From Escherichia coli (lineage in GTDB: Bacteria > Pseudomonadota > Gammaproteobacteria > Enterobacterales > Enterobacteriaceae): a stretch of DNA of 64,000 nucleotides. The stretch lies in the NCBI RefSeq assembly GCF_044324875.1, contig NZ_CP172185.1; one strand, given 5' to 3'. The position numbers were made by a program, and so were the translations under genes. Below, piece by piece: positions 6,025-58,257 of the stretch. Each line of letters starts with the position of its first letter. Within the stretch, counting starts at the first letter, position 1. The notes beneath the pieces were generated by a model. It had not been told where the DNA came from. It made no database searches and saw only the letters and a list, made by a program, of their open reading frames with translations.

Positions 6025-6675
6025 TCAGAAAATGCGCTCCTGATGCACCCATACCGCTGCTTCCACGCGAGACTTGAGCTTCATTTTCTTCAGCATGTGC
6101 TTGACGTGCACTTTTACTGTGCTTTCGGTGATGTCCAGGCGGCGGGCAATCATCTTGTTCGGCAAACCCTGGGCAATCAGCTTGAGAATATCGCGCTCGC
6201 GTGGGGTTAACTGGTTAACATCGCGCTCAGTAGTGGCACGGTTAGCGCGCAAGCTGGCGGCCAGAACAGGCGTTAATGCTTCGCTTAATACCATTTCGCC
6301 AGCAGCTGCCTGATGCAATGCTTTCAGCAGATCTTCCGGTTCCATATCTTTTAACAGATAGCCATCCGCGCCGCGTTTCAGTGCGGTGACCACATCTTCT
6401 TCATGGTTAGAGACGCTGAATACCACAATGCGCCCTGAGAGGGACTTTTCGCGGAGTTTATCCAGCGTTTCCAGACCATTCATGCCGGGCATATTGAGAT
6501 CTAACAGGATCAGATCGGGATCAAGAGATTCCGCCAGTTCAATACCCTGTTCGCCATTACTCGCTTCGCCAACCACGCTGATATCTGGTGCCATACTGAT
6601 AAGCTGTTTTACGCCAGTTCGCAGCATCGGGTGATCGTCGATCAGCAGGATAGTAGCCGGTTCCTGATTACTCAT
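6025..6675 (-). CDS. narL: Nitrate/nitrite response regulator NarL
   Basis: 216-aa [24 protein letters not shown]; receiver plus LuxR-type HTH; start overlaps narX end. Confidence 0.95.
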
Positions 6676-8464
6676 GGGTATCTCCTTGGACGTCTGTGAA
6701 AGTTTTTTCGGGAATAAAGGTGACAACCACTTCGGTGCCACCTGATTCACGACGGCGGACGCGGCAATCGCCTCGTAAACTTTGCGCACGGTCGCGCATT
6801 ATTATCATGCCGTAGTGATTGCTGCGGATGGCATTTTCAGGCACGCCGCAGCCGTTATCCTGGACGGTCAGTTTGACCTGATTATCGTTTTGCGCCACCG
6901 TCACCAAGACCTCACTCGCTTGCGAATGTTTGAGGGCGTTACTTAATGCCTCACGGGCAATTTGCAACAAGTGGATTGCCTGATGCGAAGGCACCAGACG
7001 AGGTGGCAATTGATAATCCAGCTTCACCGGGAAGCCAAATTTGGCGCTGTACTCTTCGCAACTCGCCTCCAGCGCTGGACGTAATCCAGGCTCGGTGAGC
7101 TGCAAGCGGAATGTGGTGAGCAATTCACGCAACTGCGCCCAGGATGCATTCAGTTCGTTACGGATCTGACTTAACAGTTCGCGGCTGCTTTCTGGCAGCG
7201 CATCGCCCTGCATCTGTAAACAACTCACCTGCATCTTCATGCAAGAGAGAGATTGGGCAATAGAATCATGCAGTTCGCGCGCAATGGTGGCACGCTCTTC
7301 CATCACGATCAACTGTTGCTGACGTTCCTGATGGCGATCCAACGCCAGCGTGGCGGTGAGTTGTTCAACCAGGGTATCCACCAGTTGTTGTTGATCATGG
7401 CTAAGATGACGCCCCTGCGGTAGGGTCGCCAGCAAAATGCCGTACTGCGTATGAGAGTCAGCCAGCCGCCACTTCAGGGTTGTGCCGCGATCGCCAACGG
7501 GTAATACGCCGCGCGGGCAGAGCTGGCAGCCTTTATCATCACAAGTCATATCTGGCTGGCAGGTAAACTCCTGATGATTCTCTTCATCATCAGTGTCATA
7601 CACCCGCAGTTCGATATCACGTAGCAGGGTCAAATTCTGTAAGCCGTTGAGTACAGGTGACAGGCGTTCACACAGCGGGGCGCGGGAATGCAAACGGCGG
7701 TTAGCCTGCCATAAAAAAGAGAGGATCTGATTTTTATGCTCCAGCCCGGCAGTTTTCTCCTGAACCCGCTGCTCAAGTACGGCATAACTTTCGGCCAGTT
7801 CTGCAGACATATTGTTCAATGCAGTTCCAAGCATCGCCATTTCGTTGCGCCCGCTGATGTTTGCGCGTTGGGTAAAATCGCGATGGCTGACGGCACTCGC
7901 CATTGCCAGCAGTTGCCGCCACGGTTGTAGCAATCGCGCCCGCAACCAGATAATAGTGAACACCAGTAAAAGTGCCATAAATACCGCCATTACCCGATGG
8001 ACCAGCACCACTGTCTCAATGCGCATTTCCGTGGTGCGGTCAAAACCAGATACCAGCTGATCAAGCCCGGCAACAAACTGGCTGACATCCGCTGACACCG
8101 TTTCGCGGTTTTGTGCACGCATCAGCGTAGGGATCAGTTCATTACGCCAGTAATCTTGTAAACCCTGTAATTGCGCCAGTTGTCCGTCTCCTTCTGCTGC
8201 TCGGGTTAACTCGGCGCTAAATGCCGTTTGTTCCATTTCTTTAATTAAGGGCTTGTCTTTCTCGCTTAATGGCACTGCTGCCAACAGACGGTAACTTTGC
8301 ATGCGCAGCGATCCCGCTTTGTTGATCGCATGGGCGCTGCCCTGAACGCCTTGCACCAGCCAGCCAGAAACCGCCATCCCTGCCAGTCCAATAGCAGTAG
8401 AAAGCAACACAATAAGCGCAACCTGATTAACCAGGGTGAGCGGAGAGAGACAACGTTTAAGCAT
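6668..8464 (-). CDS. narX: Nitrate/nitrite sensor histidine kinase NarX
   Basis: 598-aa ORF, two TM segments, HAMP and kinase core; overlaps narL by 8 bp. Confidence 0.95.
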
Positions 8465-8729
8465 GTAAACCTCTTCCTTCAGGCTTTAAATGAGCAATAA
8501 CCTTAATGAATGTGACGATACATTCTGGAATGGCAGTATTCTCGGCTATTGGCTGAAGTATACCCATACCCGGAAAGAGTTACTCCTTATTTGCCGTGTG
8601 GTTAGTCGCTTTACATCGGTAAGGGTAGGGATTTTACAGCACCGTGAAAAATCTCATAATTTTTATGAAATCACTGTACTCACTATGGGTAATGATAAAT
8701 ATCAATGATAGATAAAGTTATCTTATCGT

Positions 8730-8743
8730 TTGATTTACATCAA
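8730..8743 (+). promoter_or_regulatory. FNR box upstream of narK
   Basis: TTGAT-ttac-ATCAA palindrome ~60 bp upstream of narK start. Confidence 0.6.
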
Positions 8744-8802
8744 ATTGCCTTTAGCTACAGACACTAAGGTGGCAGACATCGAAACGAGTATCAGAGGTGT
8801 CT

Positions 8803-10194
8803 ATGAGTCACTCATCCGCCCCCGAAAGGGCTACTGGAGCTGTCATTACAGATTGGCGACCGGAAGATCCTGCGTTCTGGCAACAACGCGGTCAACGTAT
8901 TGCCAGCCGCAACCTGTGGATTTCCGTTCCCTGTCTGCTGCTGGCGTTTTGCGTATGGATGTTGTTCAGCGCTGTTGCGGTGAACTTACCAAAAGTTGGT
9001 TTTAATTTTACGACCGATCAGCTATTTATGTTGACTGCGCTGCCTTCGGTTTCTGGCGCGTTATTACGTGTTCCATACTCCTTTATGGTTCCTATCTTCG
9101 GTGGTCGTCGCTGGACGGCGTTCAGCACCGGTATTCTGATTATTCCTTGCGTCTGGCTGGGTTTTGCCGTGCAGGATACCTCCACGCCTTATAGCGTCTT
9201 CATCATCATCTCTCTGCTGTGCGGCTTTGCTGGCGCGAACTTCGCTTCCAGTATGGCAAACATCAGCTTCTTCTTTCCGAAACAGAAGCAGGGTGGCGCG
9301 CTGGGTCTGAATGGTGGTCTGGGCAACATGGGCGTCAGCGTCATGCAGTTGGTTGCTCCGCTGGTGGTATCACTGTCGATTTTCGCAGTATTTGGTAGCC
9401 AGGGTGTCAAACAGCCGGATGGGACTGAGCTGTATCTGGCGAATGCGTCCTGGGTATGGGTGCCGTTCCTTGCCATCTTCACCATTGCGGCGTGGTTTGG
9501 CATGAACGATCTTGCTACCTCGAAAGCCTCCATCAAGGAGCAGTTGCCGGTACTCAAACGGGGTCATCTGTGGATTATGAGCCTGCTGTATCTGGCAACC
9601 TTCGGCTCCTTCATCGGCTTCTCCGCGGGCTTTGCGATGCTGTCAAAAACGCAGTTCCCGGATGTTCAGATTCTGCAATACGCTTTCTTCGGGCCGTTTA
9701 TTGGTGCGCTGGCGCGTTCTGCAGGTGGTGCATTATCTGACCGTCTGGGCGGAACTCGTGTCACACTGGTGAACTTTATCCTGATGGCGATTTTCAGCGG
9801 CCTGCTGTTCCTGACCTTACCGACTGACGGGCAGGGCGGAAGCTTCATGGCGTTCTTCGCGGTCTTCCTGGCGCTGTTCCTGACAGCTGGGCTGGGTAGT
9901 GGTTCCACTTTCCAGATGATTTCCGTGATCTTCCGTAAACTGACAATGGATCGCGTGAAAGCAGAAGGGGGTTCTGACGAACGTGCGATGCGTGAAGCGG
10001 CAACCGACACGGCGGCGGCGCTGGGTTTCATCTCTGCGATTGGCGCGATTGGTGGCTTCTTTATCCCGAAAGCGTTCGGTAGCTCGCTGGCATTAACGGG
10101 TTCGCCAGTCGGCGCAATGAAAGTATTTTTGATTTTCTATATCGCCTGTGTAGTGATTACCTGGGCGGTATATGGTCGGCATTCTAAAAAATAA
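8803..10194 (+). CDS. narK: Nitrate/nitrite antiporter NarK (MFS)
   Basis: 463-aa ORF from ATG at 8803 with AGAGG RBS; MSHSSAPERATGAV. Confidence 0.95.
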   Translation: MSHSSAPERATGAVITDWRPEDPAFWQQRGQRIASRNLWISVPCLLLAFCVWMLFSAVAVNLPKVGFNFTTDQLFMLTALPSVSGALLRVPYSFMVPIFGGRRWTAFSTGILIIPCVWLGFAVQDTSTPYSVFIIISLLCGFAGANFASSMANISFFFPKQKQGGALGLNGGLGNMGVSVMQLVAPLVVSLSIFAVFGSQGVKQPDGTELYLANASWVWVPFLAIFTIAAWFGMNDLATSKASIKEQLPVLKRGHLWIMSLLYLATFGSFIGFSAGFAMLSKTQFPDVQILQYAFFGPFIGALARSAGGALSDRLGGTRVTLVNFILMAIFSGLLFLTLPTDGQGGSFMAFFAVFLALFLTAGLGSGSTFQMISVIFRKLTMDRVKAEGGSDERAMREAATDTAAALGFISAIGAIGGFFIPKAFGSSLALTGSPVGAMKVFLIFYIACVVITWAVYGRHSKK

Positions 10195-10319
10195 ATCTTA
10201 ATATTTGATTATCCTTTGCGCGGCATGATGTCGCGCTTTTTTTATCTGTCGTTTAGTTACAACATACTCATGTGTGAGTGGCTTATTTCGCCGGATTTCA
10301 TTAAGAGCCATTAATATGT

Positions 10320-10349
10320 TACCCATGGGGAATACTCCTTAATACCCAT
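10320..10349 (+). promoter_or_regulatory. NarL heptamer cluster (narG -200 region)
   Basis: TACCCAT, TACTCCT, TACCCAT heptamers ~200 bp upstream of predicted narG transcription start. Confidence 0.6.
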
Positions 10350-10492
10350 CTGCATAAAAATCTTAATAGTTTAAATAACTACAGGTATAAAACGTCTTAA
10401 TTTACAGTCTGTTATGTTGTGGCTGTTAATTATCCTAAAGGGGTATCTTAGGAATTTACTTTATTTTTCATCCCCATCACTCTTGATCGTTA

Positions 10493-10506
10493 TCAATTCT
10501 CACGCT
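10493..10506 (+). promoter_or_regulatory. FNR box of narG promoter
   Basis: TTGAT-cgtt-ATCAA palindrome ~90 bp upstream of narG ATG. Confidence 0.7.
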
Positions 10507-10587
10507 GTTTCAGAGCGTTACCTTGCCCTTAAACATTAGCAATGTCGATTTATCAGAGGGCCGACAGGCTCCCACAGGAGAAAACCG

Positions 10588-13500
10588 ATGAGTAAATTCC
10601 TGGACCGGTTTCGCTACTTCAAACAGAAGGGTGAAACCTTTGCCGATGGGCATGGCCAGCTTCTCAATACCAACCGTGACTGGGAGGATGGATATCGCCA
10701 GCGTTGGCAGCATGACAAAATCGTCCGCTCTACCCACGGGGTAAACTGCACCGGCTCCTGCAGCTGGAAAATCTACGTCAAAAACGGTCTGGTGACCTGG
10801 GAAACCCAGCAGACTGATTATCCTCGTACCCGTCCGGATCTGCCAAACCATGAACCTCGCGGCTGCCCGCGCGGTGCCAGCTACTCCTGGTATCTTTACA
10901 GTGCCAACCGCCTGAAATACCCGATGATGCGCAAACGCCTGATGAAAATGTGGCGTGAAGCGAAGGCGCTGCATAGCGATCCGATTGAGGCATGGGCTTC
11001 TATCATTGAAGACGCCGATAAAGCGAAAAGCTTTAAGCAGGCGCGTGGACGCGGTGGTTTTGTTCGTTCTTCCTGGCAGGAAGTGAACGAACTGATCGCC
11101 GCATCTAACGTTTACACCATCAAAAACTACGGCCCGGACCGTGTCGCTGGCTTCTCGCCAATTCCGGCAATGTCGATGGTTTCTTACGCGTCGGGTGCGC
11201 GTTATCTCTCGCTGCTTGGCGGTACTTGCTTAAGCTTCTACGACTGGTACTGCGACCTGCCTCCTGCGTCTCCGCAAACCTGGGGCGAGCAGACTGACGT
11301 ACCGGAATCTGCTGACTGGTACAACTCCAGCTACATCATCGCCTGGGGTTCAAACGTGCCGCAGACGCGTACTCCGGATGCTCACTTCTTTACTGAAGTG
11401 CGTTACAAAGGCACCAAAACTGTTGCCGTCACACCGGACTACGCTGAAATCGCCAAACTGTGCGATCTGTGGCTGGCACCGAAACAGGGCACCGACGCAG
11501 CAATGGCGCTGGCGATGGGCCACGTAATGCTGCGTGAATTCCACCTCGACAACCCAAGCCAGTATTTCACCGACTATGTGCGTCGCTACACCGACATGCC
11601 GATGCTGGTGATGCTGGAAGAACGCGACGGTTACTACGCCGCAGGTCGTATGCTGCGTGCTGCTGATCTGGTGGATGCGCTGGGCCAGGAAAACAATCCG
11701 GAATGGAAAACTGTCGCCTTTAATACCAATGGCGAAATGGTTGCGCCGAACGGTTCTATTGGCTTCCGCTGGGGCGAGAAGGGCAAATGGAATCTTGAGC
11801 AGCGCGACGGCAAAACTGGCGAAGAAACCGAGCTGCAACTGAGTCTGCTGGGTAGCCAGGATGAGATCGCTGAGGTGGGCTTCCCGTACTTTGGTGGCGA
11901 CGGCACGGAACACTTCAACAAAGTGGAGCTGGAAAACATTCTGCTGCACAAACTGCCGGTAAAACGCCTGCAACTGGCTGATGGCAGCACCGCACTGGTG
12001 ACCACCGTTTATGATCTGACACTGGCAAACTACGGTCTGGAACGTGGCCTGAACGACGTTAACTGCGCAACCAGCTATGACGATGTGAAAGCTTACACTC
12101 CGGCGTGGGCCGAGCAAATCACTGGCGTTTCTCGTAGCCAGATTATCCGTATTGCCCGTGAATTTGCCGATAACGCTGACAAGACGCACGGTCGTTCGAT
12201 GATTATCGTCGGTGCGGGGCTGAACCACTGGTATCACCTCGATATGAACTATCGTGGTCTGATCAACATGCTGATTTTCTGCGGCTGTGTCGGTCAGAGC
12301 GGGGGTGGCTGGGCGCACTATGTAGGTCAGGAAAAACTGCGTCCGCAAACCGGCTGGCAGCCGCTGGCGTTTGCTCTTGACTGGCAGCGTCCGGCGCGTC
12401 ACATGAACAGCACCTCTTATTTCTATAACCACTCCAGCCAGTGGCGTTATGAAACCGTGACCGCAGAAGAGTTGTTGTCGCCGATGGCGGATAAATCCCG
12501 TTATACCGGACACTTGATCGACTTTAACGTCCGTGCAGAACGTATGGGCTGGCTGCCGTCTGCGCCGCAGTTAGGCACTAACCCGCTAACTATCGCTGGC
12601 GAAGCGAAAAAAGCGGGCATGAATCCGGTGGATTACACCGTGAAATCCCTGAAAGAGGGTTCTATCCGTTTTGCGGCAGAACAACCAGAAAACGGTAAAA
12701 ACCACCCGCGTAACCTGTTCATCTGGCGTTCTAACCTGCTCGGTTCTTCCGGTAAAGGTCATGAGTTTATGCTCAAGTACCTGCTGGGGACGGAGCACGG
12801 TATCCAGGGCAAAGACCTGGGGCAGCAGGGCGGCGTGAAGCCGGAAGAAGTGGACTGGCAGGACAACGGTCTGGAAGGCAAGCTGGATCTGGTGGTGACG
12901 CTGGACTTCCGTCTGTCGAGCACCTGTCTCTATTCCGACATCATTTTGCCGACGGCGACCTGGTACGAAAAAGACGACATGAATACTTCGGATATGCATC
13001 CGTTTATTCACCCGCTGTCTGCGGCGGTCGATCCGGCCTGGGAAGCGAAAAGCGACTGGGAAATCTACAAAGCCATCGCGAAGAAATTCTCCGAAGTGTG
13101 CGTTGGTCATCTGGGTAAAGAAACTGACATCGTCACGCTGCCTATCCAGCACGACTCTGCCGCTGAACTGGCGCAACCGCTGGATGTGAAAGACTGGAAA
13201 AAAGGCGAATGCGATCTGATCCCAGGTAAAACTGCACCGCACATTATGGTCGTAGAGCGCGATTATCCGGCAACTTTCGAACGCTTTACCTCTATCGGCC
13301 CGCTGATGGAGAAAATCGGTAACGGCGGTAAAGGGATTGCCTGGAACACCCAGAGCGAGATGGATCTGCTGCGTAAGCTCAACTACACCAAAGCGGAAGG
13401 TCCGGCAAAAGGTCAGCCGATGCTCAATACCGCAATTGATGCGGCAGAGATGATCCTGACGCTGGCACCGGAAACCAATGGTCAGGTAGCTGTAAAAGCC

Positions 13501-14331
13501 TGGGCTGCCCTGAGCGAGTTTACCGGTCGTGACCATACGCATCTGGCGCTGAATAAAGAAGACGAGAAGATTCGCTTCCGCGATATTCAGGCACAGCCGC
13601 GCAAAATCATCTCCAGCCCGACCTGGTCTGGCCTTGAAGATGAACACGTTTCTTACAACGCCGGTTACACCAACGTTCACGAGCTGATCCCGTGGCGTAC
13701 GCTCTCTGGCCGTCAGCAGCTGTATCAGGATCACCAGTGGATGCGTGATTTCGGTGAAAGCCTGCTGGTTTATCGTCCGCCGATCGACACCCGTTCGGTG
13801 AAAGAAGTGATGGGCCAGAAATCCAACGGCAACCCGGAAAAAGCGCTCAACTTCCTGACGCCGCACCAGAAGTGGGGTATCCACTCCACCTACAGCGACA
13901 ACCTGCTGATGCTGACTTTAGGTCGCGGTGGTCCGGTGGTCTGGCTGAGTGAAGCCGATGCCAAAGAGCTGGGTATCGCCGATAACGACTGGATTGAAGT
14001 CTTCAACAGCAACGGTGCACTGACTGCCCGTGCGGTTGTCAGCCAGCGTGTTCCGGCAGGGATGACCATGATGTACCACGCGCAGGAACGTATCGTTAAC
14101 CTGCCTGGTTCGGAAATTACCCAACAGCGTGGTGGTATCCATAATTCGGTCACCCGTATCACGCCGAAACCGACGCATATGATCGGCGGCTATGCCCATC
14201 TGGCATACGGCTTTAACTACTATGGCACCGTAGGTTCTAACCGCGATGAGTTTGTTGTAGTGCGTAAGATGAAGAACATTGACTGGTTAGATGGCGAAGG
14301 CAATGACCAGGTACAGGAGAGCGTAAAATGA
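10588..14331 (+). CDS. narG: Respiratory nitrate reductase A alpha subunit
   Basis: 1247-aa ORF; synteny; overlaps narH start. Confidence 0.97.
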   Translation: MSKFLDRFRYFKQKGETFADGHGQLLNTNRDWEDGYRQRWQHDKIVRSTHGVNCTGSCSWKIYVKNGLVTWETQQTDYPRTRPDLPNHEPRGCPRGASYSWYLYSANRLKYPMMRKRLMKMWREAKALHSDPIEAWASIIEDADKAKSFKQARGRGGFVRSSWQEVNELIAASNVYTIKNYGPDRVAGFSPIPAMSMVSYASGARYLSLLGGTCLSFYDWYCDLPPASPQTWGEQTDVPESADWYNSSYIIAWGSNVPQTRTPDAHFFTEVRYKGTKTVAVTPDYAEIAKLCDLWLAPKQGTDAAMALAMGHVMLREFHLDNPSQYFTDYVRRYTDMPMLVMLEERDGYYAAGRMLRAADLVDALGQENNPEWKTVAFNTNGEMVAPNGSIGFRWGEKGKWNLEQRDGKTGEETELQLSLLGSQDEIAEVGFPYFGGDGTEHFNKVELENILLHKLPVKRLQLADGSTALVTTVYDLTLANYGLERGLNDVNCATSYDDVKAYTPAWAEQITGVSRSQIIRIAREFADNADKTHGRSMIIVGAGLNHWYHLDMNYRGLINMLIFCGCVGQSGGGWAHYVGQEKLRPQTGWQPLAFALDWQRPARHMNSTSYFYNHSSQWRYETVTAEELLSPMADKSRYTGHLIDFNVRAERMGWLPSAPQLGTNPLTIAGEAKKAGMNPVDYTVKSLKEGSIRFAAEQPENGKNHPRNLFIWRSNLLGSSGKGHEFMLKYLLGTEHGIQGKDLGQQGGVKPEEVDWQDNGLEGKLDLVVTLDFRLSSTCLYSDIILPTATWYEKDDMNTSDMHPFIHPLSAAVDPAWEAKSDWEIYKAIAKKFSEVCVGHLGKETDIVTLPIQHDSAAELAQPLDVKDWKKGECDLIPGKTAPHIMVVERDYPATFERFTSIGPLMEKIGNGGKGIAWNTQSEMDLLRKLNYTKAEGPAKGQPMLNTAIDAAEMILTLAPETNGQVAVKAWAALSEFTGRDHTHLALNKEDEKIRFRDIQAQPRKIISSPTWSGLEDEHVSYNAGYTNVHELIPWRTLSGRQQLYQDHQWMRDFGESLLVYRPPIDTRSVKEVMGQKSNGNPEKALNFLTPHQKWGIHSTYSDNLLMLTLGRGGPVVWLSEADAKELGIADNDWIEVFNSNGALTARAVVSQRVPAGMTMMYHAQERIVNLPGSEITQQRGGIHNSVTRITPKPTHMIGGYAHLAYGFNYYGTVGSNRDEFVVVRKMKNIDWLDGEGNDQVQESVK

Positions 14332-17430: not shown

Positions 17431-17968
17431 GTGATGGTGGTTGGGGAAGGATTATTCAGCGCTGCGCGCTTCACCCTTCGGGTCGTTGCCTGCGGCAACG
17501 CTCTCTCGCTGGCGCTCGAGTCGAACCTTGGTCGAAGCTTCTCATCCTTCCCCGCTTGGGCAGAATATTTAATTACGGATTCGTTTGAGAGTTCAGGGAC
17601 TTTTGAAAGTGATGGTGGTGGGGGAAGGATTACTCAGCGCTGCGCGCTTCGCCCTTCGGGTCGTTGCCTGCGGCAACGCTCTCTCGCTGGCGCTCGAGTC
17701 GAGCCTTGGTCGAAGCTTCTCATCCTTCCCCGCTTGGGCAGAATATTTAATTACGGATTCGTTTGAGAGTTCAGGGACTTTTGAAAGTGATGGTGGTGGG
17801 GGAAGGATTACTCAGCGCTGCGCGCTTCGCCCTTCGGGTCGTTGCCTGCGGCAACGCTCTCTCGCTGGCGCTCGAGTCGAGCCTTGGTCGAAGCTTCTCA
17901 TCCTTCCCCGCTTGGGCAGAATATTTAATTACGGATTCGTTTGAGAGTTCAGGGACTTTTGAAAGTGA
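17431..17968 (-). repeat. Three tandem ~178-bp repeats of the tyrT operon distal region (rtT/tpr region)
   Basis: Units beginning at 17431, 17609 and 17786, each starting with a copy of the 3'-terminal ~19 nt of tRNA-Tyr; near-identical units. Confidence 0.9.
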
Positions 17969-18053
<85 letters not shown>

Positions 18054-18212: not shown

Positions 18213-19055
18213 TTAAAGAATAATCGTCCGATTACCGTAAACAAAGACGCGCTGCGCCAGTACTTTGTAGAGTGCGCGACTTAAGACGTTTTTCTCGACG
18301 TCACGACCTGCGCGCATCATATCTTCAGCTGTGTAGGTATGATCGACATGAATAACGTCCTGCATGATGATTGGACCTTCGTCCAGATTGTCATTCACAT
18401 AGTGAGCGGTTGCGCCAATAATCTTCACGCCACGTTCATAGGCCTGGTGATAAGGACGTGCGCCGATAAACGCTGGCAGGAATGAATGGTGAATATTGAT
18501 GATCTTATTCGGGAAGCGTGCCACAAATTCTGGCGTTAATACCCGCATATACTTCGCCAGCACCACGTAGTCAGGCTGATAAGCATCAATGGCATCCGCC
18601 ATCTTTTGATCGTGCTCGTTGCGGCTTAACCCTTCATGGCTTACCAGCTCAAACGGAATATCAAAACGCTCAACCAGAGAACGTAAAGTATCGTGGTTAC
18701 CAATAACTGCCGCGATTTCGACATCCAGGCCGCCGTAATTGGCTTTCATCAACAAATCGCCGAGGCAATGCGCCTCTTTAGTGACCAGAATCACTATCCG
18801 GCGACGACCGGCAGGATTCAGCTCACGTACGGAGCCTTCTGGCAATGCGCTGTCGAGATCCGCCAGCAGGGTGGAATCATTAAAAATTCCTTCCAGTTCC
18901 GTGCGCATAAAAAAGCGCCCGGTACGGTGATCAACAAATTCATTGTTCTGTACGATATTTAACTCGTGCTTGTAGCAAATATTGGTAATACGTGCGATCA
19001 GACCTTTTTGGTCCGGACAAATAGTACGCAGAACTTTACGTTGGAGTGAATGCAT
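18213..19055 (-). CDS. purU: Formyltetrahydrofolate deformylase
   Basis: 280-aa ORF. Confidence 0.95.
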   Translation of the reverse strand: MHSLQRKVLRTICPDQKGLIARITNICYKHELNIVQNNEFVDHRTGRFFMRTELEGIFNDSTLLADLDSALPEGSVRELNPAGRRRIVILVTKEAHCLGDLLMKANYGGLDVEIAAVIGNHDTLRSLVERFDIPFELVSHEGLSRNEHDQKMADAIDAYQPDYVVLAKYMRVLTPEFVARFPNKIINIHHSFLPAFIGARPYHQAYERGVKIIGATAHYVNDNLDEGPIIMQDVIHVDHTYTAEDMMRAGRDVEKNVLSRALYKVLAQRVFVYGNRTIIL

Positions 19056-24793: not shown

Positions 24794-24808
24794 GGTAATG
24801 ACTCCAAC

Positions 24809-25312
24809 TTATTGATAGTGTTTTATGTTCAGATAATGCCCGATGACTTTGTCATGCAGCTCCACCGATTTTGAGAACGACAGCGACTTCCGTCCCAGCC
24901 GTGCCAGGTGCTGCCTCAGATTCAGGTTATGCCGCTCAATTCGCTGCGTATATCGCTTGCTGATTACGTGCAGCTTTCCCTTCAGGCGGGATTCATACAG
25001 TGGCCAGCCATCCGTCATCCATATCACCACGTCAAAGGGTGACAGCAGGCTCATAAGACGCCCCAGCGTCGCCATAGTGCGTTCACCGAATACGTGCGCA
25101 ACAACCGTCTTCCGGAGCCTGTCATACGCGTAAAACAGCCAGCGCTGGCGCGATTTAGCCCCGACATAGCCCCACTGTTCGTCCATTTCCGCGCAGACGA
25201 TGACGTCACTGCCCGGCTGTATGCGCGAGGTTACCGACTGCGGCCTGAGTTTTTTAAGTGACGTAAAATCGTGTTGAGGCCAACGCCCATAATGCGGGCA
25301 GTTGCCCGGCAT
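24809..25312 (-). CDS. insB: IS1 transposase InsB frame
   Basis: 167-aa ORF; A6C slippery site near 25246-25255 for InsAB' frameshift fusion. Confidence 0.9.
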
Positions 25313-25506
25313 CCAACGCCATTCATGGCCATATCAATGATTTTCTGGTGCGTACCGGGTTGAGAAGCGGTGTAAGTGAACTGCAGTTGCCATGTTTTAC
25401 GGCAGTGAGAGCAGAGATAGCGCTGATGTCCGGCGGTGCTTTTGCCGTTACGCACCACCCCGTCAGTAGCTGAACAGGAGGGACAGCTGATAGAAACAGA
25501 AGCCAC
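25231..25506 (-). CDS. insA: IS1 InsA (transposition inhibitor / N-terminal transposase part)
   Basis: 91-aa ORF with zinc-finger Cys pairs. Confidence 0.9.
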
Positions 25507-25561
25507 TGGAGCACCTCAAAAACACCATCATACACTAAATCAGTAAGTTGGCAGCATCACC

Positions 25562-25570
25562 GGCAAATGC
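25562..25570. repeat. IS1 target-site duplication (right), GGCAAATGC
   Basis: Matches 24785-24793. Confidence 0.85.
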
Positions 25571-25655
25571 TGTCGGTTTATGGGAAAGTTGCTTTGGGTA
25601 AAACAAAAAAACGGCCCCAGAAGGGACCGTTTATGTTGCCAGACAGCGCTACTGA

Positions 25656-28331
25656 TTAAGCGGATTTCTTCGCTTTTTTCTCAGCTTTAGCCGGAGCGGC
25701 TTCCTTTTTCGCTGCAGTTTCACCTTCTACATAATCACGACCGTAGTAGGTATCCAGCAGAATCTGTTTCAGCTCGGAGATCAGCGGGTAACGCGGGTTA
25801 GCGCCGGTGCACTGGTCATCGAATGCATCTTCAGACAGTTTATCCACATTCGCCAGGAAGTCTGCTTCCTGAACGCCAGCTTCACGGATAGATTTCGGAA
25901 TACCCAGTTCAGCTTTCAGCGTTTCCAGCCATGCCAGCAGTTTCTCGATCTTAGCAGCAGTACGGTCGCCCGGTGCGCTCAGACCCAGGTGGTCAGCAAT
26001 TTCAGCATAACGACGGCGAGCTTGCGGACGGTCATACTGGCTGAATGCAGTCTGCTTGGTCGGGTTGTCGTTCGCGTTGTAGCGAATAACGTTACAAATC
26101 AGCAGGGCGTTTGCCAGACCGTGCGGAATATGGAACTGGGAACCCAGTTTGTGCGCCATTGAGTGACATACACCCAGGAAGGCGTTCGCAAACGCGATAC
26201 CCGCGATAGTTGCTGCACTGTGAACACGTTCACGCGCTACCGGATTTTTAGATCCTTCGTGGTAGGACGCTGGCAGATATTCTTTCAGCAGTTTCAGCGC
26301 CTGCAGAGCCTGACCATCAGAGAACTCAGATGCCAGTACAGAAACATAAGCTTCCATGGCGTGAGTTACTGCGTCCAGACCACCGAAAGCACACAGGGAC
26401 TTCGGCATGTCCATAACCAGGTTGGCATCGACAATCGCCATATCCGGGGTCAGCGCATAGTCTGCCAGCGGATATTTCTGACCAGTAGCGTCGTCAGTTA
26501 CAACCGCAAACGGAGTGACTTCAGAACCTGTACCAGAAGTGGTGGTGACAGCGATCATTTTCGCTTTCACGCCCATTTTCGGGAACTTGTAGATACGTTT
26601 ACGGATATCCATAAAGCGCAGCGCCAGTTCTTCGAAGTGAGTTTCCGGATGTTCGTACATGACCCACATGATCTTCGCGGCGTCCATCGGGGAACCACCA
26701 CCCAGCGCGATAATCACGTCTGGTTTAAAGGAGTTTGCCAGTTCTGCACCTTTACGAACGATGCTCAGGGTCGGGTCAGCTTCTACTTCGAAGAAGACTT
26801 CAGTTTCAACGCCTGCTGCTTTCAGTACGGAAGTGATCTGATCAGCATAACCATTGTTGAACAGGAAGCGGTCAGTCACGATGAGCGCACGTTTGTGGCC
26901 ATCAGTAATCACTTCATCCAGCGCGATTGGCAGGGAGCCACGGCGGAAGTAGATAGATTTCGGAAGTTTGTGCCACAACATGTTTTCAGCTCGCTTAGCA
27001 ACGGTTTTCTTGTTGATCAGGTGTTTCGGACCAACGTTTTCAGAGATGGAGTTACCACCCCAGGAACCACAACCCAGAGTCAGGGAAGGTGCGAGTTTGA
27101 AGTTATACAGGTCACCGATACCACCCTGAGAAGCCGGGGTGTTAATCAGGATACGAGCCGTTTTCATTTTCTGACCGAAGTAAGAAACGCGAGCCGGTTG
27201 GTTATCCTGGTCAGTGTACAGGCAAGAGGTATGACCGATACCGCCCATAGCAACCAGTTTCTCTGCTTTTTCTACCGCGTCTTCGAAATCTTTAGCGCGG
27301 TACATTGCCAGAGTAGGGGACAGTTTTTCATGTGCGAACGGTTCGCTTTCATCAACAACGGTCACTTCACCGATCAGAATCTTGGTGTTTTCTGGTACAG
27401 AGAAGCCTGCCAGTTCAGCAATTTTATAGGCTGGCTGACCAACGATAGCCGCGTTCAGCGCACCGTTTTTCAGGATAACGTCCTGAACAGCTTTCAGCTC
27501 TTTACCCTGCAACAGATAGCCGCCGTGGGTTGCGAAACGTTCACGTACTGCGTCATAAACAGAGTCAACAACAACAACAGACTGTTCAGAAGCACAGATT
27601 ACGCCGTTGTCGAAGGTTTTGGACATCAGCACAGATGCAACTGCACGTTTGATATCAGCAGTTTCATCGATAACAACAGGCGTGTTACCCGCGCCTACAC
27701 CGATAGCTGGTTTACCGGAGCTGTATGCGGCTTTAACCATGCCCGGACCACCAGTCGCGAGGATCAGGTTGATGTCTGGGTGGTGCATCAGTGCGTTAGA
27801 CAGTTCAACAGAAGGTTGATCGATCCAGCCGATCAGATCTTTCGGAGCACCGGCAGCGATAGCAGCCTGCAGAACGATATCAGCCGCTTTGTTGGTTGCA
27901 TCTTTTGCACGCGGGTGCGGGGAGAAGATAATGGCGTTACGGGTCTTCAGGCTGATCAGCGATTTGAAGATAGCAGTTGAAGTCGGGTTAGTGGTCGGAA
28001 CGATACCGCAAATAATACCGATTGGTTCAGCGATAGTGATGGTACCAAAAGTGTCGTCTTCAGACAGAACACCACAGGTTTTTTCATCTTTATAGGCGTT
28101 GTAGATATATTCAGAAGCAAAGTGGTTTTTGATCACTTTATCTTCGACGATACCCATGCCGGATTCGGCAACGGCCATTTTCGCGAGTGGGATTCGAGCA
28201 TCTGCAGCAGCCAGAGCGGCGGCGCGGAAGATTTTGTCTACTTGCTCTTGAGTGAAACTGGCATATTCACGCTGGGCTTTTTTTACACGCTCTACGAGTG
28301 CGTTAAGTTCAGCGACATTAGTAACAGCCAT
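25656..28331 (-). CDS. adhE: Bifunctional acetaldehyde-CoA / alcohol dehydrogenase
   Basis: 891-aa [23 protein letters not shown]. Confidence 0.97.
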
Positions 28332-42681: not shown

Positions 42682-43037
42682 GCACTCTCCTTGAGTTTTA
42701 TGCAGGTGTTAATTAGCGGGCAATTGTACCCTGGTTAAGCCTCGGGTGGCAGCATCAGGTCTTGTATGGAAAAGCATATCTTTGTAAAGCGGAGGTAATT
42801 GCTGGCCTTCAGGCGTGGGCAAACCGCGGCAAGTGGCGAACGAGTTAATATTTGCGTAGCGAAAATATTTAAAAATTGATTTAAATCACATTAACCAGGA
42901 TTCTCAATGCAACTTCTAAATTAATCCAGATCAATAAATGGTGAATTATCATATGTAATGTGATCTATGTAGGATCATTTGTTACTCCAATGTAGGTATA
43001 TTCGTCACGTTTTTATAACCATAACGACGGAGCGGAT

Positions 43038-43676
43038 ATGAAAAAGTTAACAGTGGCGGCTTTGGCAGTAACAACTCTTCTCTCTGGCAGTGCCTATGCG
43101 CATGAAGCAGGCGAATTTTTTATGCGTGCAGGGTCTGCAACCGTACGTCCAACAGAAGGTGCTGGTGGTACGTTAGGAAGTCTGGGTGGATTCAGCGTGA
43201 CCAATAACACGCAACTGGGCCTGACGTTTACTTATATGGCGACCGATAACATTGGTGTGGAATTGCTGGCAGCGACGCCGTTCCGCCATAAAATCGGCAC
43301 CCGGGCGACCGGCGATATTGCAACCGTTCATCATCTGCCGCCAACACTGATGGCGCAGTGGTATTTTGGTGATGCCAGCAGCAAATTCCGTCCTTACGTT
43401 GGTGCAGGTATTAACTACACCACCTTCTTTGATAATGGATTTAACGATCATGGCAAAGAGGCGGGGCTTTCCGATCTCAGTCTGAAAGACTCCTGGGGAG
43501 CTGCCGGGCAGGTGGGGGTTGATTATCTGATTAACCGTGACTGGTTGGTTAACATGTCAGTCTGGTACATGGATATCGATACCACTGCCAATTATAAACT
43601 GGGCGGTGCACAGCAACACGATAGCGTACGCCTCGATCCGTGGGTGTTTATGTTCTCAGCAGGATATCGTTTTTAA
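43038..43676 (+). CDS. ompW: Outer membrane protein W
   Basis: 212-aa ORF with signal peptide, C-terminal aromatic residue. Confidence 0.95.
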   Translation: MKKLTVAALAVTTLLSGSAYAHEAGEFFMRAGSATVRPTEGAGGTLGSLGGFSVTNNTQLGLTFTYMATDNIGVELLAATPFRHKIGTRATGDIATVHHLPPTLMAQWYFGDASSKFRPYVGAGINYTTFFDNGFNDHGKEAGLSDLSLKDSWGAAGQVGVDYLINRDWLVNMSVWYMDIDTTANYKLGGAQQHDSVRLDPWVFMFSAGYRF

Positions 43677-56913: not shown

Positions 56914-57936
56914 ATGATTAGATATAGTGGAATATTTCTATCGCTGTTAATGCTTTCAGGTTGTGCAACTGAAGCATTGAAAAACGAACAAGCTGAAACT
57001 GTTATTACTGCGGGTAACAAAGCAGTAGCGGCGAATGCAAGTTTCTTTAAACAATACTATGCTTCTCGTGAAAACTTCCTTGTTAATTTTTATGCGACTA
57101 ATCCGGATTGTGCACCTCGACCAGATTATGAGGTAGTTATTGAAAACAGTACCAGTGATGAGTCATTATGTCAGCAACCTGGAGATAAGCACAAAAAATC
57201 TCAAGAAGATCTTTTTATTACAAAGATAGTCGCTACTGAAAAAGAAAGATTGCTGGCTTCTATGGAAATCATTAGCAGTATGAGTTCTTATGTCGAACTT
57301 TTGAATGAGGATTTAGATGTTAAAGACAGCAAACAGTTCATATTGCTTAAACAAGCTCTGGATCACGCGAATAATGCGGGGGCACTTCTGGGCATCAATG
57401 ATGGTGGAACATTAACAAAATCTGCAGCAGCGGTTAAAGATTTAGTGGTTTATTTCAATGGGTTGTATAATACAAGGGTAAGCGCAGGGAATATAGGTAG
57501 TACGGTAAATAATCATTGGCAAAGAATAAAAAATGATCTAACTGATATACGAAACGATATCGCGACAAAAGGTAAACAAACTGGAAGAAATACCTTTGCG
57601 ACGGTACATAATAATCTCGTTTATTACAATGCCTCCTTAAAAAAAGGAGGAGGTAATGAATTTAAGACATTGAAGAGCAGACAAGAATTCCTGGCTGCGA
57701 TTATCAGTATTAATGAAACACGTCTTCGTGCAGCAGATCCAGCTATTCCAGCAATACAAGCACTGAACTCATTTCTTGACGAGGGGAATCACCTTAAGGA
57801 TTTATACACTAATAAAATACGCACAGCGGCTGAACAAAAAAGGCTAAATGAAATATTACGCGCACAGGTCATTAGTGGGTTAAAGGCGTCTGAGGGGCTG
57901 GCAAAACTACTTATTGCCAGCGGAATAATGTTATAG
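56914..57936 (+). CDS. Predicted lipoprotein of unknown function (340 aa) in an AT-rich insertion
   Basis: ORF with AGAGGTGG RBS; signal peptide MIRYSGIFLSLLMLSGC with lipobox LSGC and Ala at +2; codon usage visibly AT-rich compared with neighbours. Confidence 0.75.
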   Translation: MIRYSGIFLSLLMLSGCATEALKNEQAETVITAGNKAVAANASFFKQYYASRENFLVNFYATNPDCAPRPDYEVVIENSTSDESLCQQPGDKHKKSQEDLFITKIVATEKERLLASMEIISSMSSYVELLNEDLDVKDSKQFILLKQALDHANNAGALLGINDGGTLTKSAAAVKDLVVYFNGLYNTRVSAGNIGSTVNNHWQRIKNDLTDIRNDIATKGKQTGRNTFATVHNNLVYYNASLKKGGGNEFKTLKSRQEFLAAIISINETRLRAADPAIPAIQALNSFLDEGNHLKDLYTNKIRTAAEQKRLNEILRAQVISGLKASEGLAKLLIASGIML

Positions 57937-57948
57937 GAGGGGCTTTTT

Positions 57949-58257
57949 ATGAACGATGTACAAAACCGTAGAATATTGGCATTACTTGATATGCTGTATA
58001 ATACTCTGGGCAACAAAACCACATGCAAGGTTTGTCATAAATATTTTATCCTTATCCTCACGGTGATGAACAATCTGACGATTAACTACGGTACTGAAAC
58101 TTCGCCAGAGTTAAGCGGAATCAGTTATGAAGATGCCAATGCGTTAATTACTGAACTGATATTATTTATTGAAGATGTTGACGCTGAGAATCATGAAGCA
58201 TATCCGGGACATTTGAATGAGATTAAACGGATTCTGAGTTTTGCTATTGCCGCTTGA
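57949..58257 (+). CDS. Hypothetical small protein (102 aa), partner of the lipoprotein
   Basis: ORF 12 bp downstream of the lipoprotein stop with AGGAGG RBS; no signal peptide; CKVCH motif. Confidence 0.65.
   Translation: MNDVQNRRILALLDMLYNTLGNKTTCKVCHKYFILILTVMNNLTINYGTETSPELSGISYEDANALITELILFIEDVDAENHEAYPGHLNEIKRILSFAIAA

Follow-up and report, generated by a model that had tools for sequence, protein, structure and literature searches.

The window, a stretch of 64,000 nucleotides from the E. coli chromosome, contains narL and narX on the minus strand followed by narK and narGHJI. The cognate NarX-NarL system is therefore encoded within it: narX (6668-8464, minus strand), identified as an open reading frame and from annotation, encodes the nitrate sensor kinase and is divergent from narK, and narL (6025-6675, minus strand), located from the annotated narL of a strain with 100% identity, encodes the response regulator of this system, which recognizes the heptamers discussed below. 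The predicted NarL protein is identical to NarL from K-12 at 215 of 216 residues, and the sole change, T33S, is in the receiver domain. On the plus strand, narK (8803-10194) encodes a nitrate/nitrite antiporter and has its ATG at 8803 as in the K-12 annotation. It is followed by narG (10588-14331, plus strand), encoding the alpha subunit of nitrate reductase A, with an ATG at 10588 supported by both the open reading frame and annotation. We focused on the interval from 8465 to 10587, which begins immediately after the narX start codon and ends immediately before the narG ATG. This interval is comprised of a 338-bp divergent control region between narX and narK (8465-8802), narK itself, and a 393-bp intergenic region between narK and narG (10195-10587).

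Of 5,426 complete E. coli genomes, 5,415 match the 2.5 kb surrounding this interval with at least 95% identity. In one of them the identity is 100%, and narX, narK, and narG are annotated there. Strain CFSAN061763 is identical over 8300-10800; coordinates projected from this strain are off by approximately 770 bp further downstream, and we therefore used the open reading frame calls of the window itself for gene coordinates. A search of 8400-10650 against Rfam with a permissive E-value returned just two sub-threshold matches, L20_leader and KCNQ1OT1. Both were far below gathering scores and we took them as chance matches.

Each of the two control regions contains a perfect FNR site. The site at narK reads TTGATTTACATCAA and is at 8730-8743, as claimed in the first-pass annotation of this DNA. 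It is the same in K-12. The site at narG reads TTGATCGTTATCAA, is at 10483-10496, and is the same in K-12 and in five divergent E. coli alleles. The first-pass annotation had placed this second site at 10493-10506, which is 10 bp too high; that interval reads TCAATTCTCACGCT. Its remaining placement, three NarL heptamers at 10320-10349, was exact, leaving one of three sets of coordinates in need of correction. In the whole 64 kb, the consensus TTGATNNNNATCAA is found at these two positions and nowhere else, compared to 0.06 occurrences expected, and none of 100 shuffles of the 64 kb reached two. Further near-consensus FNR sites are found in the window at 18576, 28555, 48368, and 53376.

The FNR sites of narGHJI and narK in K-12 are both listed at -41.5 and both have a ChIP peak (Myers et al., PMC3688515), and FNR-dependent anaerobic induction in K-12 is known from ChIP and transcriptomics (PMC3688515). 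K-12 site positions were taken from secondary sources and a database supplement. Aligning the window with K-12 and setting the centers of the FNR sites at -41.5 places the transcript start of narK at 8778 and that of narG at 10531. The primers for the narG223 fragment (PMC9314961 supplement) end at window positions 10308 and 10600, which also gives a +1 of 10531. Since the FNR site at -41.5 and the independent ends of the fragment at -223 and +70 agree, we infer that the narG transcript starts at 10531. At both promoters, a suitably spaced -10 element is present and the FNR site overlaps the -35 region. The -10 hexamer of narG is TACCTT at 10519-10524 (-12 to -7, plus strand), with columns that are 80-99% conserved and the exact hexamer in 53 of 114 species; the element at narK is TAAGGT at -13 to -8. 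These regions thus have the traits of class II FNR promoters, namely the TTGAT-N4-ATCAA repeat and its center near -41.5 by alignment to K-12. A generic scan for sigma-70 promoters and terminators flagged neither the narG nor the narK promoter, as expected because these promoters are activator-dependent, and the narK terminator was its one useful result.

We located NarL sites by taking the K-12 database sites as 17-mers from the MotifAdjuster supplement (PMC2718512) and searching the window for exact copies. Six of the seven narG 17-mers and nine of the ten narK 17-mers had exact matches, at the same distances to the FNR sites as in K-12. Upstream of narG, the distal heptamers are TACCCAT at 10320-10326 (-208), TACTCCT at 10333-10339 (-195), and TACCCAT at 10343-10349 (-185), all on the plus strand, and correspond to the published low-affinity "-195 region". 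The first-pass annotation described them as about 200 bp upstream of the narG start. This is correct relative to the transcript start (-211 to -182) and incorrect relative to the ATG at 10588, from which they are 239-268 bp distant. The heptamers at -208 and -195 are among the K-12 database sites. The heptamer at -185 has the perfect consensus and is within the -195 footprint region; its individual role is less certain because it is missing from the K-12 database list of NarL sites (PMC2718512 supplement). A literature search for the -208/-195/-185 numbering returned nothing usable. The distal group is the only place in the window with three heptamers within 30 bp; 5 of 500 shuffles of local composition contained such a cluster.

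Closer to the narG promoter are four more heptamers that are exact matches to K-12 database 17-mers: TAATTAT at 10427-10433 (-101), AGGGGTA at 10439-10445 (-89, equivalent to TACCCCT on the minus strand), TAGGAAT at 10449-10455 (-79), and TCCCCAT at 10471-10477 (-57). The heptamers between 10427 and 10477 make up the published high-affinity "-89 region" (PMC4549865). Phosphorylated NarL (NarL-P) footprints both this region and the lower-affinity -195 region at narG, and the two regions are needed there along with FNR and IHF (PMC4549865). With TACYYMT heptamers in both footprinted regions, the window shows this trait of a narG-type NarL region. We found no 7-2-7 inverted repeat at narG, in agreement with the published description (PMC4549865); the closest pair is the 7-5-7 arrangement of -101 and -89. 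Nitrate induction of narG that depends on narL is known in K-12 (PMC9314961, PMC4549865).

The narK control region contains nine database heptamers, at -214, -194, -177, -160, -154, -98, -90, -80, and -67. The two furthest upstream, TACCCAT at 8561-8567 (-214) and TACTCCT at 8581-8587 (-194), are on the plus strand, and are followed between 8598 and 8627 on the minus strand by the weaker heptamers TAACCAC (-177), TACCGAT (-160), and TACCCTT (-154). An inverted pair with a 7-1-7 arrangement is located at 8677-8691 and consists of TACTCAC at 8677-8683 (-98), a T, and ATGGGTA at 8685-8691 (-90). The heptamer at -67 (8708-8714) is a weak database site, as is the one at -80, which is overlapped by a second FNR-like site, ATGATAAATATCAA, at 8692-8705. 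This site has one mismatch and its center is at -79.5. FNR is presumed to act at this site. Neither the nine narK heptamers, the FNR-like site at -79.5, nor the narG heptamers at -101, -89, -79, and -57 were in the site list of the first-pass annotation.

Alignment with MG1655 was the check that the first-pass annotation had proposed, with sites failing to align as the outcome that would count against it. All sites aligned and no site was changed. From 8465 to 8802 there is one difference, at 8670 (A here, G in K-12), which is outside both FNR sites and every retained database heptamer. It falls in sequence flanking the narK entry CACTGTA, the one narK 17-mer with no match in the window, and this entry has been marked for removal by the MotifAdjuster re-annotation (PMC2718512). 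From 10283 to 10587 there are two differences, at 10418 (-113; T here, G in K-12) and 10500 (-31; T here, C in K-12), both outside every site. A cluster of differences from K-12 occurs upstream of -249, at 10244-10282. The one narG 17-mer with no match is TACTTTA (-393), which in K-12 is located in a 127-nt insert that we describe below. A fragment from -223 to +70 of narG holds multiple NarL sites and an IHF site, and its upstream NarL/IHF segment makes a hybrid promoter strongly inducible by nitrate (PMC9314961). Because TACTTTA is outside this fragment, it is probably dispensable for narG.

The narG control region was unexpectedly polymorphic within the species, with 989 genomes only 90-95% identical over -221 to +5; the narK region is at least 99% identical in 5,160 genomes. 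We compared seven E. coli narG alleles with identities down to 94.7% and found that substitutions are mainly in spacers, at -114 to -108 and -84 to -82. The FNR site and the heptamers at -208, -195, -101, -89, and -57 are unchanged in all seven. Within heptamers, one allele has a change in the last base of -185, two have one in the first base of -79, and there are no others.

To extend this comparison across genera, representative genomes were scanned with a degenerate pattern for the N-terminus of NarG, yielding 120 Enterobacterales loci. Of these, 116 have sufficient flanking sequence, and in 110 a perfect FNR site precedes the ATG by 93-139 bp. We then lined up 114 unique sequences by their FNR sites, with no gaps. 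In this alignment, 109 of 114 species have a perfect, in-register FNR site, 80 have a consensus heptamer at precisely -195 (the next commonest position has 10), and 97 retain the GGTA core at -89; these counts overstate the independent support, since the species are related and their loci were selected with an exact pattern in the coding sequence. As an internal control, unconserved stretches of the same alignment have a majority base of just 30-40% per column. In-register full consensus heptamers are found at -185 in 10 of 114 species and at -208 in 2 of 114, indicating that these two heptamers are not conserved beyond Escherichia and its closest relatives. A similar ungapped comparison of narK from 54 species showed 90-99% conservation of the FNR site columns, a majority base of 80-99% in the columns of the -214 and -194 heptamers, and 70-99% conservation of the block CTACTCACTA.GGG that spans the inverted pair. 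The columns of -177, -160, and -154 are poorly conserved across genera. At the FNR-like site at 8692-8705, the 5' half alone is conserved and the 3' half is not.

IHF is reported to be required at narG (PMC4549865, PMC3688515), and positions -112 to -248 of narG, the IHF region included, are recorded as identical to K-12. The likely IHF core is TTACAGTCTGTTA at 10402-10414 (-129 to -117, plus strand). The cross-genus column consensus at these positions reads AATCAATAAGTTA, a perfect match to WATCAANNNNTTR. The E. coli core has three mismatches to WATCAANNNNTTR, and a full match is present in only 10 of 114 individual sequences. A scan of the window for WATCAANNNNTTR with up to one mismatch was uninformative, giving 72 matches compared to 62 expected and none in the -125 region of narG. 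The position of this putative core is the weakest element of the architecture.

The one structural difference from K-12 that we observed follows the narK stop codon. K-12 has there a 127-nt palindromic insert that folds into a long hairpin (-38.4 kcal/mol), and the window has TCTT (10196-10199). The insert is a putative ERIC-type repeat. Among 5,426 complete E. coli genomes, 2,457 carry it at this position and the rest (approximately 55%) lack it. Its absence is thus a common polymorphism. In the K-12 annotation the insert falls inside the 184-nt narS RNA. When this annotation was projected onto the window by alignment, the NarS equivalent was 61 nt long at the 3' end of narK (10183-10243, plus strand), with a terminator hairpin at 10218-10236 followed by a run of T residues. 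The NarS of Salmonella is 63 nt, and the longer form in K-12 has been attributed to an insertion near the stop codon (PMC7038943).

These observations raise the possibility that the architecture is the known one, and that the T/C difference at -31, the T/G difference at -113, and the lack of the 127-nt insert nonetheless alter narG output or NarS processing to a meaningful extent. All three differences are real on alignment to K-12, the base at -31 is in a -35-like hexamer adjoining the FNR site, and the insert is within the K-12 narS RNA whose length it is blamed for (PMC7038943). However, neither T nor C at -31 fits the -35 consensus, and in the cross-genus comparison the majority base is T, with the C of K-12 being the variant in E. 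coli. The patch around -113 is hypervariable in E. coli, the insert-free state is shared with more than half of the complete genomes, and the NarS seed and terminator are downstream of the insertion point and unchanged from K-12. We therefore regard a meaningful effect as unlikely, even if quantitative behavior could differ from K-12 because of the two substitutions and the missing insert. A related and similarly doubtful idea is that K-12 is the atypical strain here, that this strain should make a Salmonella-like NarS of about 61 nt, and that the insert and the hypervariable narG spacers might tune narK, NarS, and narG by lineage.

We also considered whether CRP occupies the palindromes and NarP the heptamers, in place of FNR and NarL, which we find very improbable. 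The core of a CRP site is TGTGA/TCACA. CRP and FNR are homologues with related palindromes of 22 bp and 14 bp (PMC9314961), but both sites in the window are TTGAT/ATCAA, the FNR consensus (PMC3688515). NarP reads the same heptamer sequence as NarL, but it binds only 7-2-7 inverted repeats (PMC2718512). narG has none (PMC4549865), and the closest arrangements in the window are the 7-5-7 pair at narG and the 7-1-7 pair at narK. Least probable of all is that the motif matches have no regulatory role and arose by chance in intergenic DNA that is AT-rich: the heptamer motif TACYYMT is both short and degenerate, with 51 matches in the window compared to 31 expected, several database heptamers are weak matches, and the sigma-70 consensus scan was silent at both promoters, but this explanation is effectively refuted by the excess of perfect FNR sites, by the enrichment of heptamers in the control regions (8 of the 51 matches in the 731 bp of the two regions, binomial P = 1.2e-7), by the identity of the sites to those mapped experimentally in K-12, and by in-register conservation in 80-109 of 114 species against the 30-40% seen in unconserved columns.

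We conclude that the narK and narG control regions have the standard K-12-type architecture, which is already known. The first-pass annotation had regarded the sites as textbook features that confirm the identity of the locus with no novelty, and the identity of every site to K-12 bears this out. These are almost certainly the standard E. coli narK and narGHJI promoters, responsive to anaerobiosis and nitrate. The presence and spacing of the sites, their identity to K-12, and their conservation come from the sequences compared here, and binding and regulation are carried over from the K-12 literature; on this basis we infer that regulation in this strain would be like that in K-12.

According to the model from K-12, an FNR dimer would bind TTGAT-N4-ATCAA at -41.5 when oxygen is absent and recruit RNA polymerase in a class II arrangement. 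When nitrate is present, NarX would phosphorylate NarL, and NarL-P would fill the TACYYMT heptamers. At narG, NarL-P would occupy one group of high affinity around -89 and another of low affinity around -195, and a bend introduced by IHF near -125 would bring the distal NarL group towards the complex of FNR and polymerase, so that full expression of narG would need both signals. The same logic would apply to narK, with heptamers from -214 to -67 and the second FNR-like site at -79.5. The value of the analysis is as a check of locus identity and as a complete, coordinate-exact map of the sites in the window. In addition, the cross-genus footprint shows deep conservation of the FNR site, the -195 heptamer, and the -89 core, whereas the -208 heptamer and the full heptamer at -185 are specific to Escherichia.

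The nirB, nrfA, and fdnG promoters resemble the narG promoter in having an FNR site near -41.5 and upstream NarL heptamers (PMC3688515, PMC2718512). They differ in having high-affinity 7-2-7 inverted repeats that are also bound by NarP (PMC2718512), whereas narG has dispersed single heptamers out to -208 together with IHF, and no 7-2-7 site (PMC4549865). The predicted 61-nt NarS equivalent has the same layout as the 63-nt NarS-S of Salmonella, which is cut from the narK 3' UTR. Its GCAUUCU sequence at the processing site overlaps the Salmonella UCAUUC motif with one base different, and is followed by a single-stranded seed and the terminator hairpin. By contrast, the narS of K-12 is 184 nt long with the insert that the window lacks. 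Compared to the narGHJI promoter of K-12, the FNR site, the -10 hexamer, and the six promoter-proximal database heptamers with their spacing are the same base for base. The differences are the spacer positions 10418 and 10500, the cluster at 10244-10282, and the lack of TACTTTA at -393. Compared to the narK promoter of K-12, the 338 bp are the same except for one base, and both the FNR and FNR-like sites and all nine database heptamers are unchanged.

In K-12 (MG1655), a 127-nt palindromic insert that we take to be ERIC-like is located immediately 3' of the narK stop codon (positions 4351-4477 of L001, our numbering of the K-12 locus) and falls within the annotated 184-nt narS RNA. The window contains TCTT in place of this insert, within 10195-10200. 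Of 5,426 complete E. coli genomes, 2,457 carry the insert at the narK 3' site, so fewer than half share the K-12 form.

One of the seven K-12 narG NarL heptamers (motif TACYYMT) in the list from the MotifAdjuster supplement (PMC2718512), TACTTTA, is inside this insert (L001 4412-4418), at -393 from the inferred narG transcript start (window 10531), and has no counterpart in the window. The -185 heptamer of narG is a perfect match to the consensus, yet it is missing from the same list. Either the TACTTTA entry is misplaced or the -185 heptamer was never individually annotated.

Within E. coli, the narG control region is far more polymorphic than that of narK, with 989 genomes at 90-95% identity for narG compared to 5,160 genomes at 99% identity or higher for narK. 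The narG changes are concentrated in two short spacer patches, both between NarL heptamers, at 10417-10423 (-114 to -108) and 10447-10449 (-84 to -82).

Upstream of ompW (43038-43676) there are two FNR sites, each with one mismatch to TTGAT-N4-ATCAA, at 42876-42889 (TTGATTTAAATCAC) and 42921-42934 (TTAATCCAGATCAA), with a spacing of 45 bp. FNR sites have been published for ompW at -126.5 and -81.5 (PMC4886647), and the two sequences are identical to these. Thus, the window contains nine FNR matches with no more than one mismatch, and five of them belong to known FNR-regulated promoters.

Between rluB and cobO, two open reading frames of 340 and 102 aa are encoded on the plus strand (56914-58257) and had no match in Pfam, NCBIfam, or PADLOC. 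Of the 5,426 E. coli genomes, only 1,237 contain this locus, and its versions are very divergent (60-99% identity, with five genomes at 99% or higher). It is a variable accessory locus.

Two rdlD-type antitoxin RNAs (702-767 and 1237-1302), 535 bp apart, belong to the long direct repeats that carry Ldr toxin genes, and K-12 has three copies at this locus. Adjacent to these RNAs, at the start of the window, the closest annotated strain carries an IS200-family transposase gene. The sequence downstream of narI contains, at 17435-18053, a tandem array of three RtT repeats together with a tRNA match, and two tRNA-Tyr genes are annotated here in that strain. At approximately 24,796 (region about 24800-26300), matches to other genomes are interrupted, and here the same strain contains IS4 between tdk and adhE.

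Having TCTT rather than the 127-nt insert, the window has an equivalent of NarS, the small RNA from the narK 3' end, that is 61 nt long and Salmonella-like, in contrast to the 184-nt RNA annotated in K-12.
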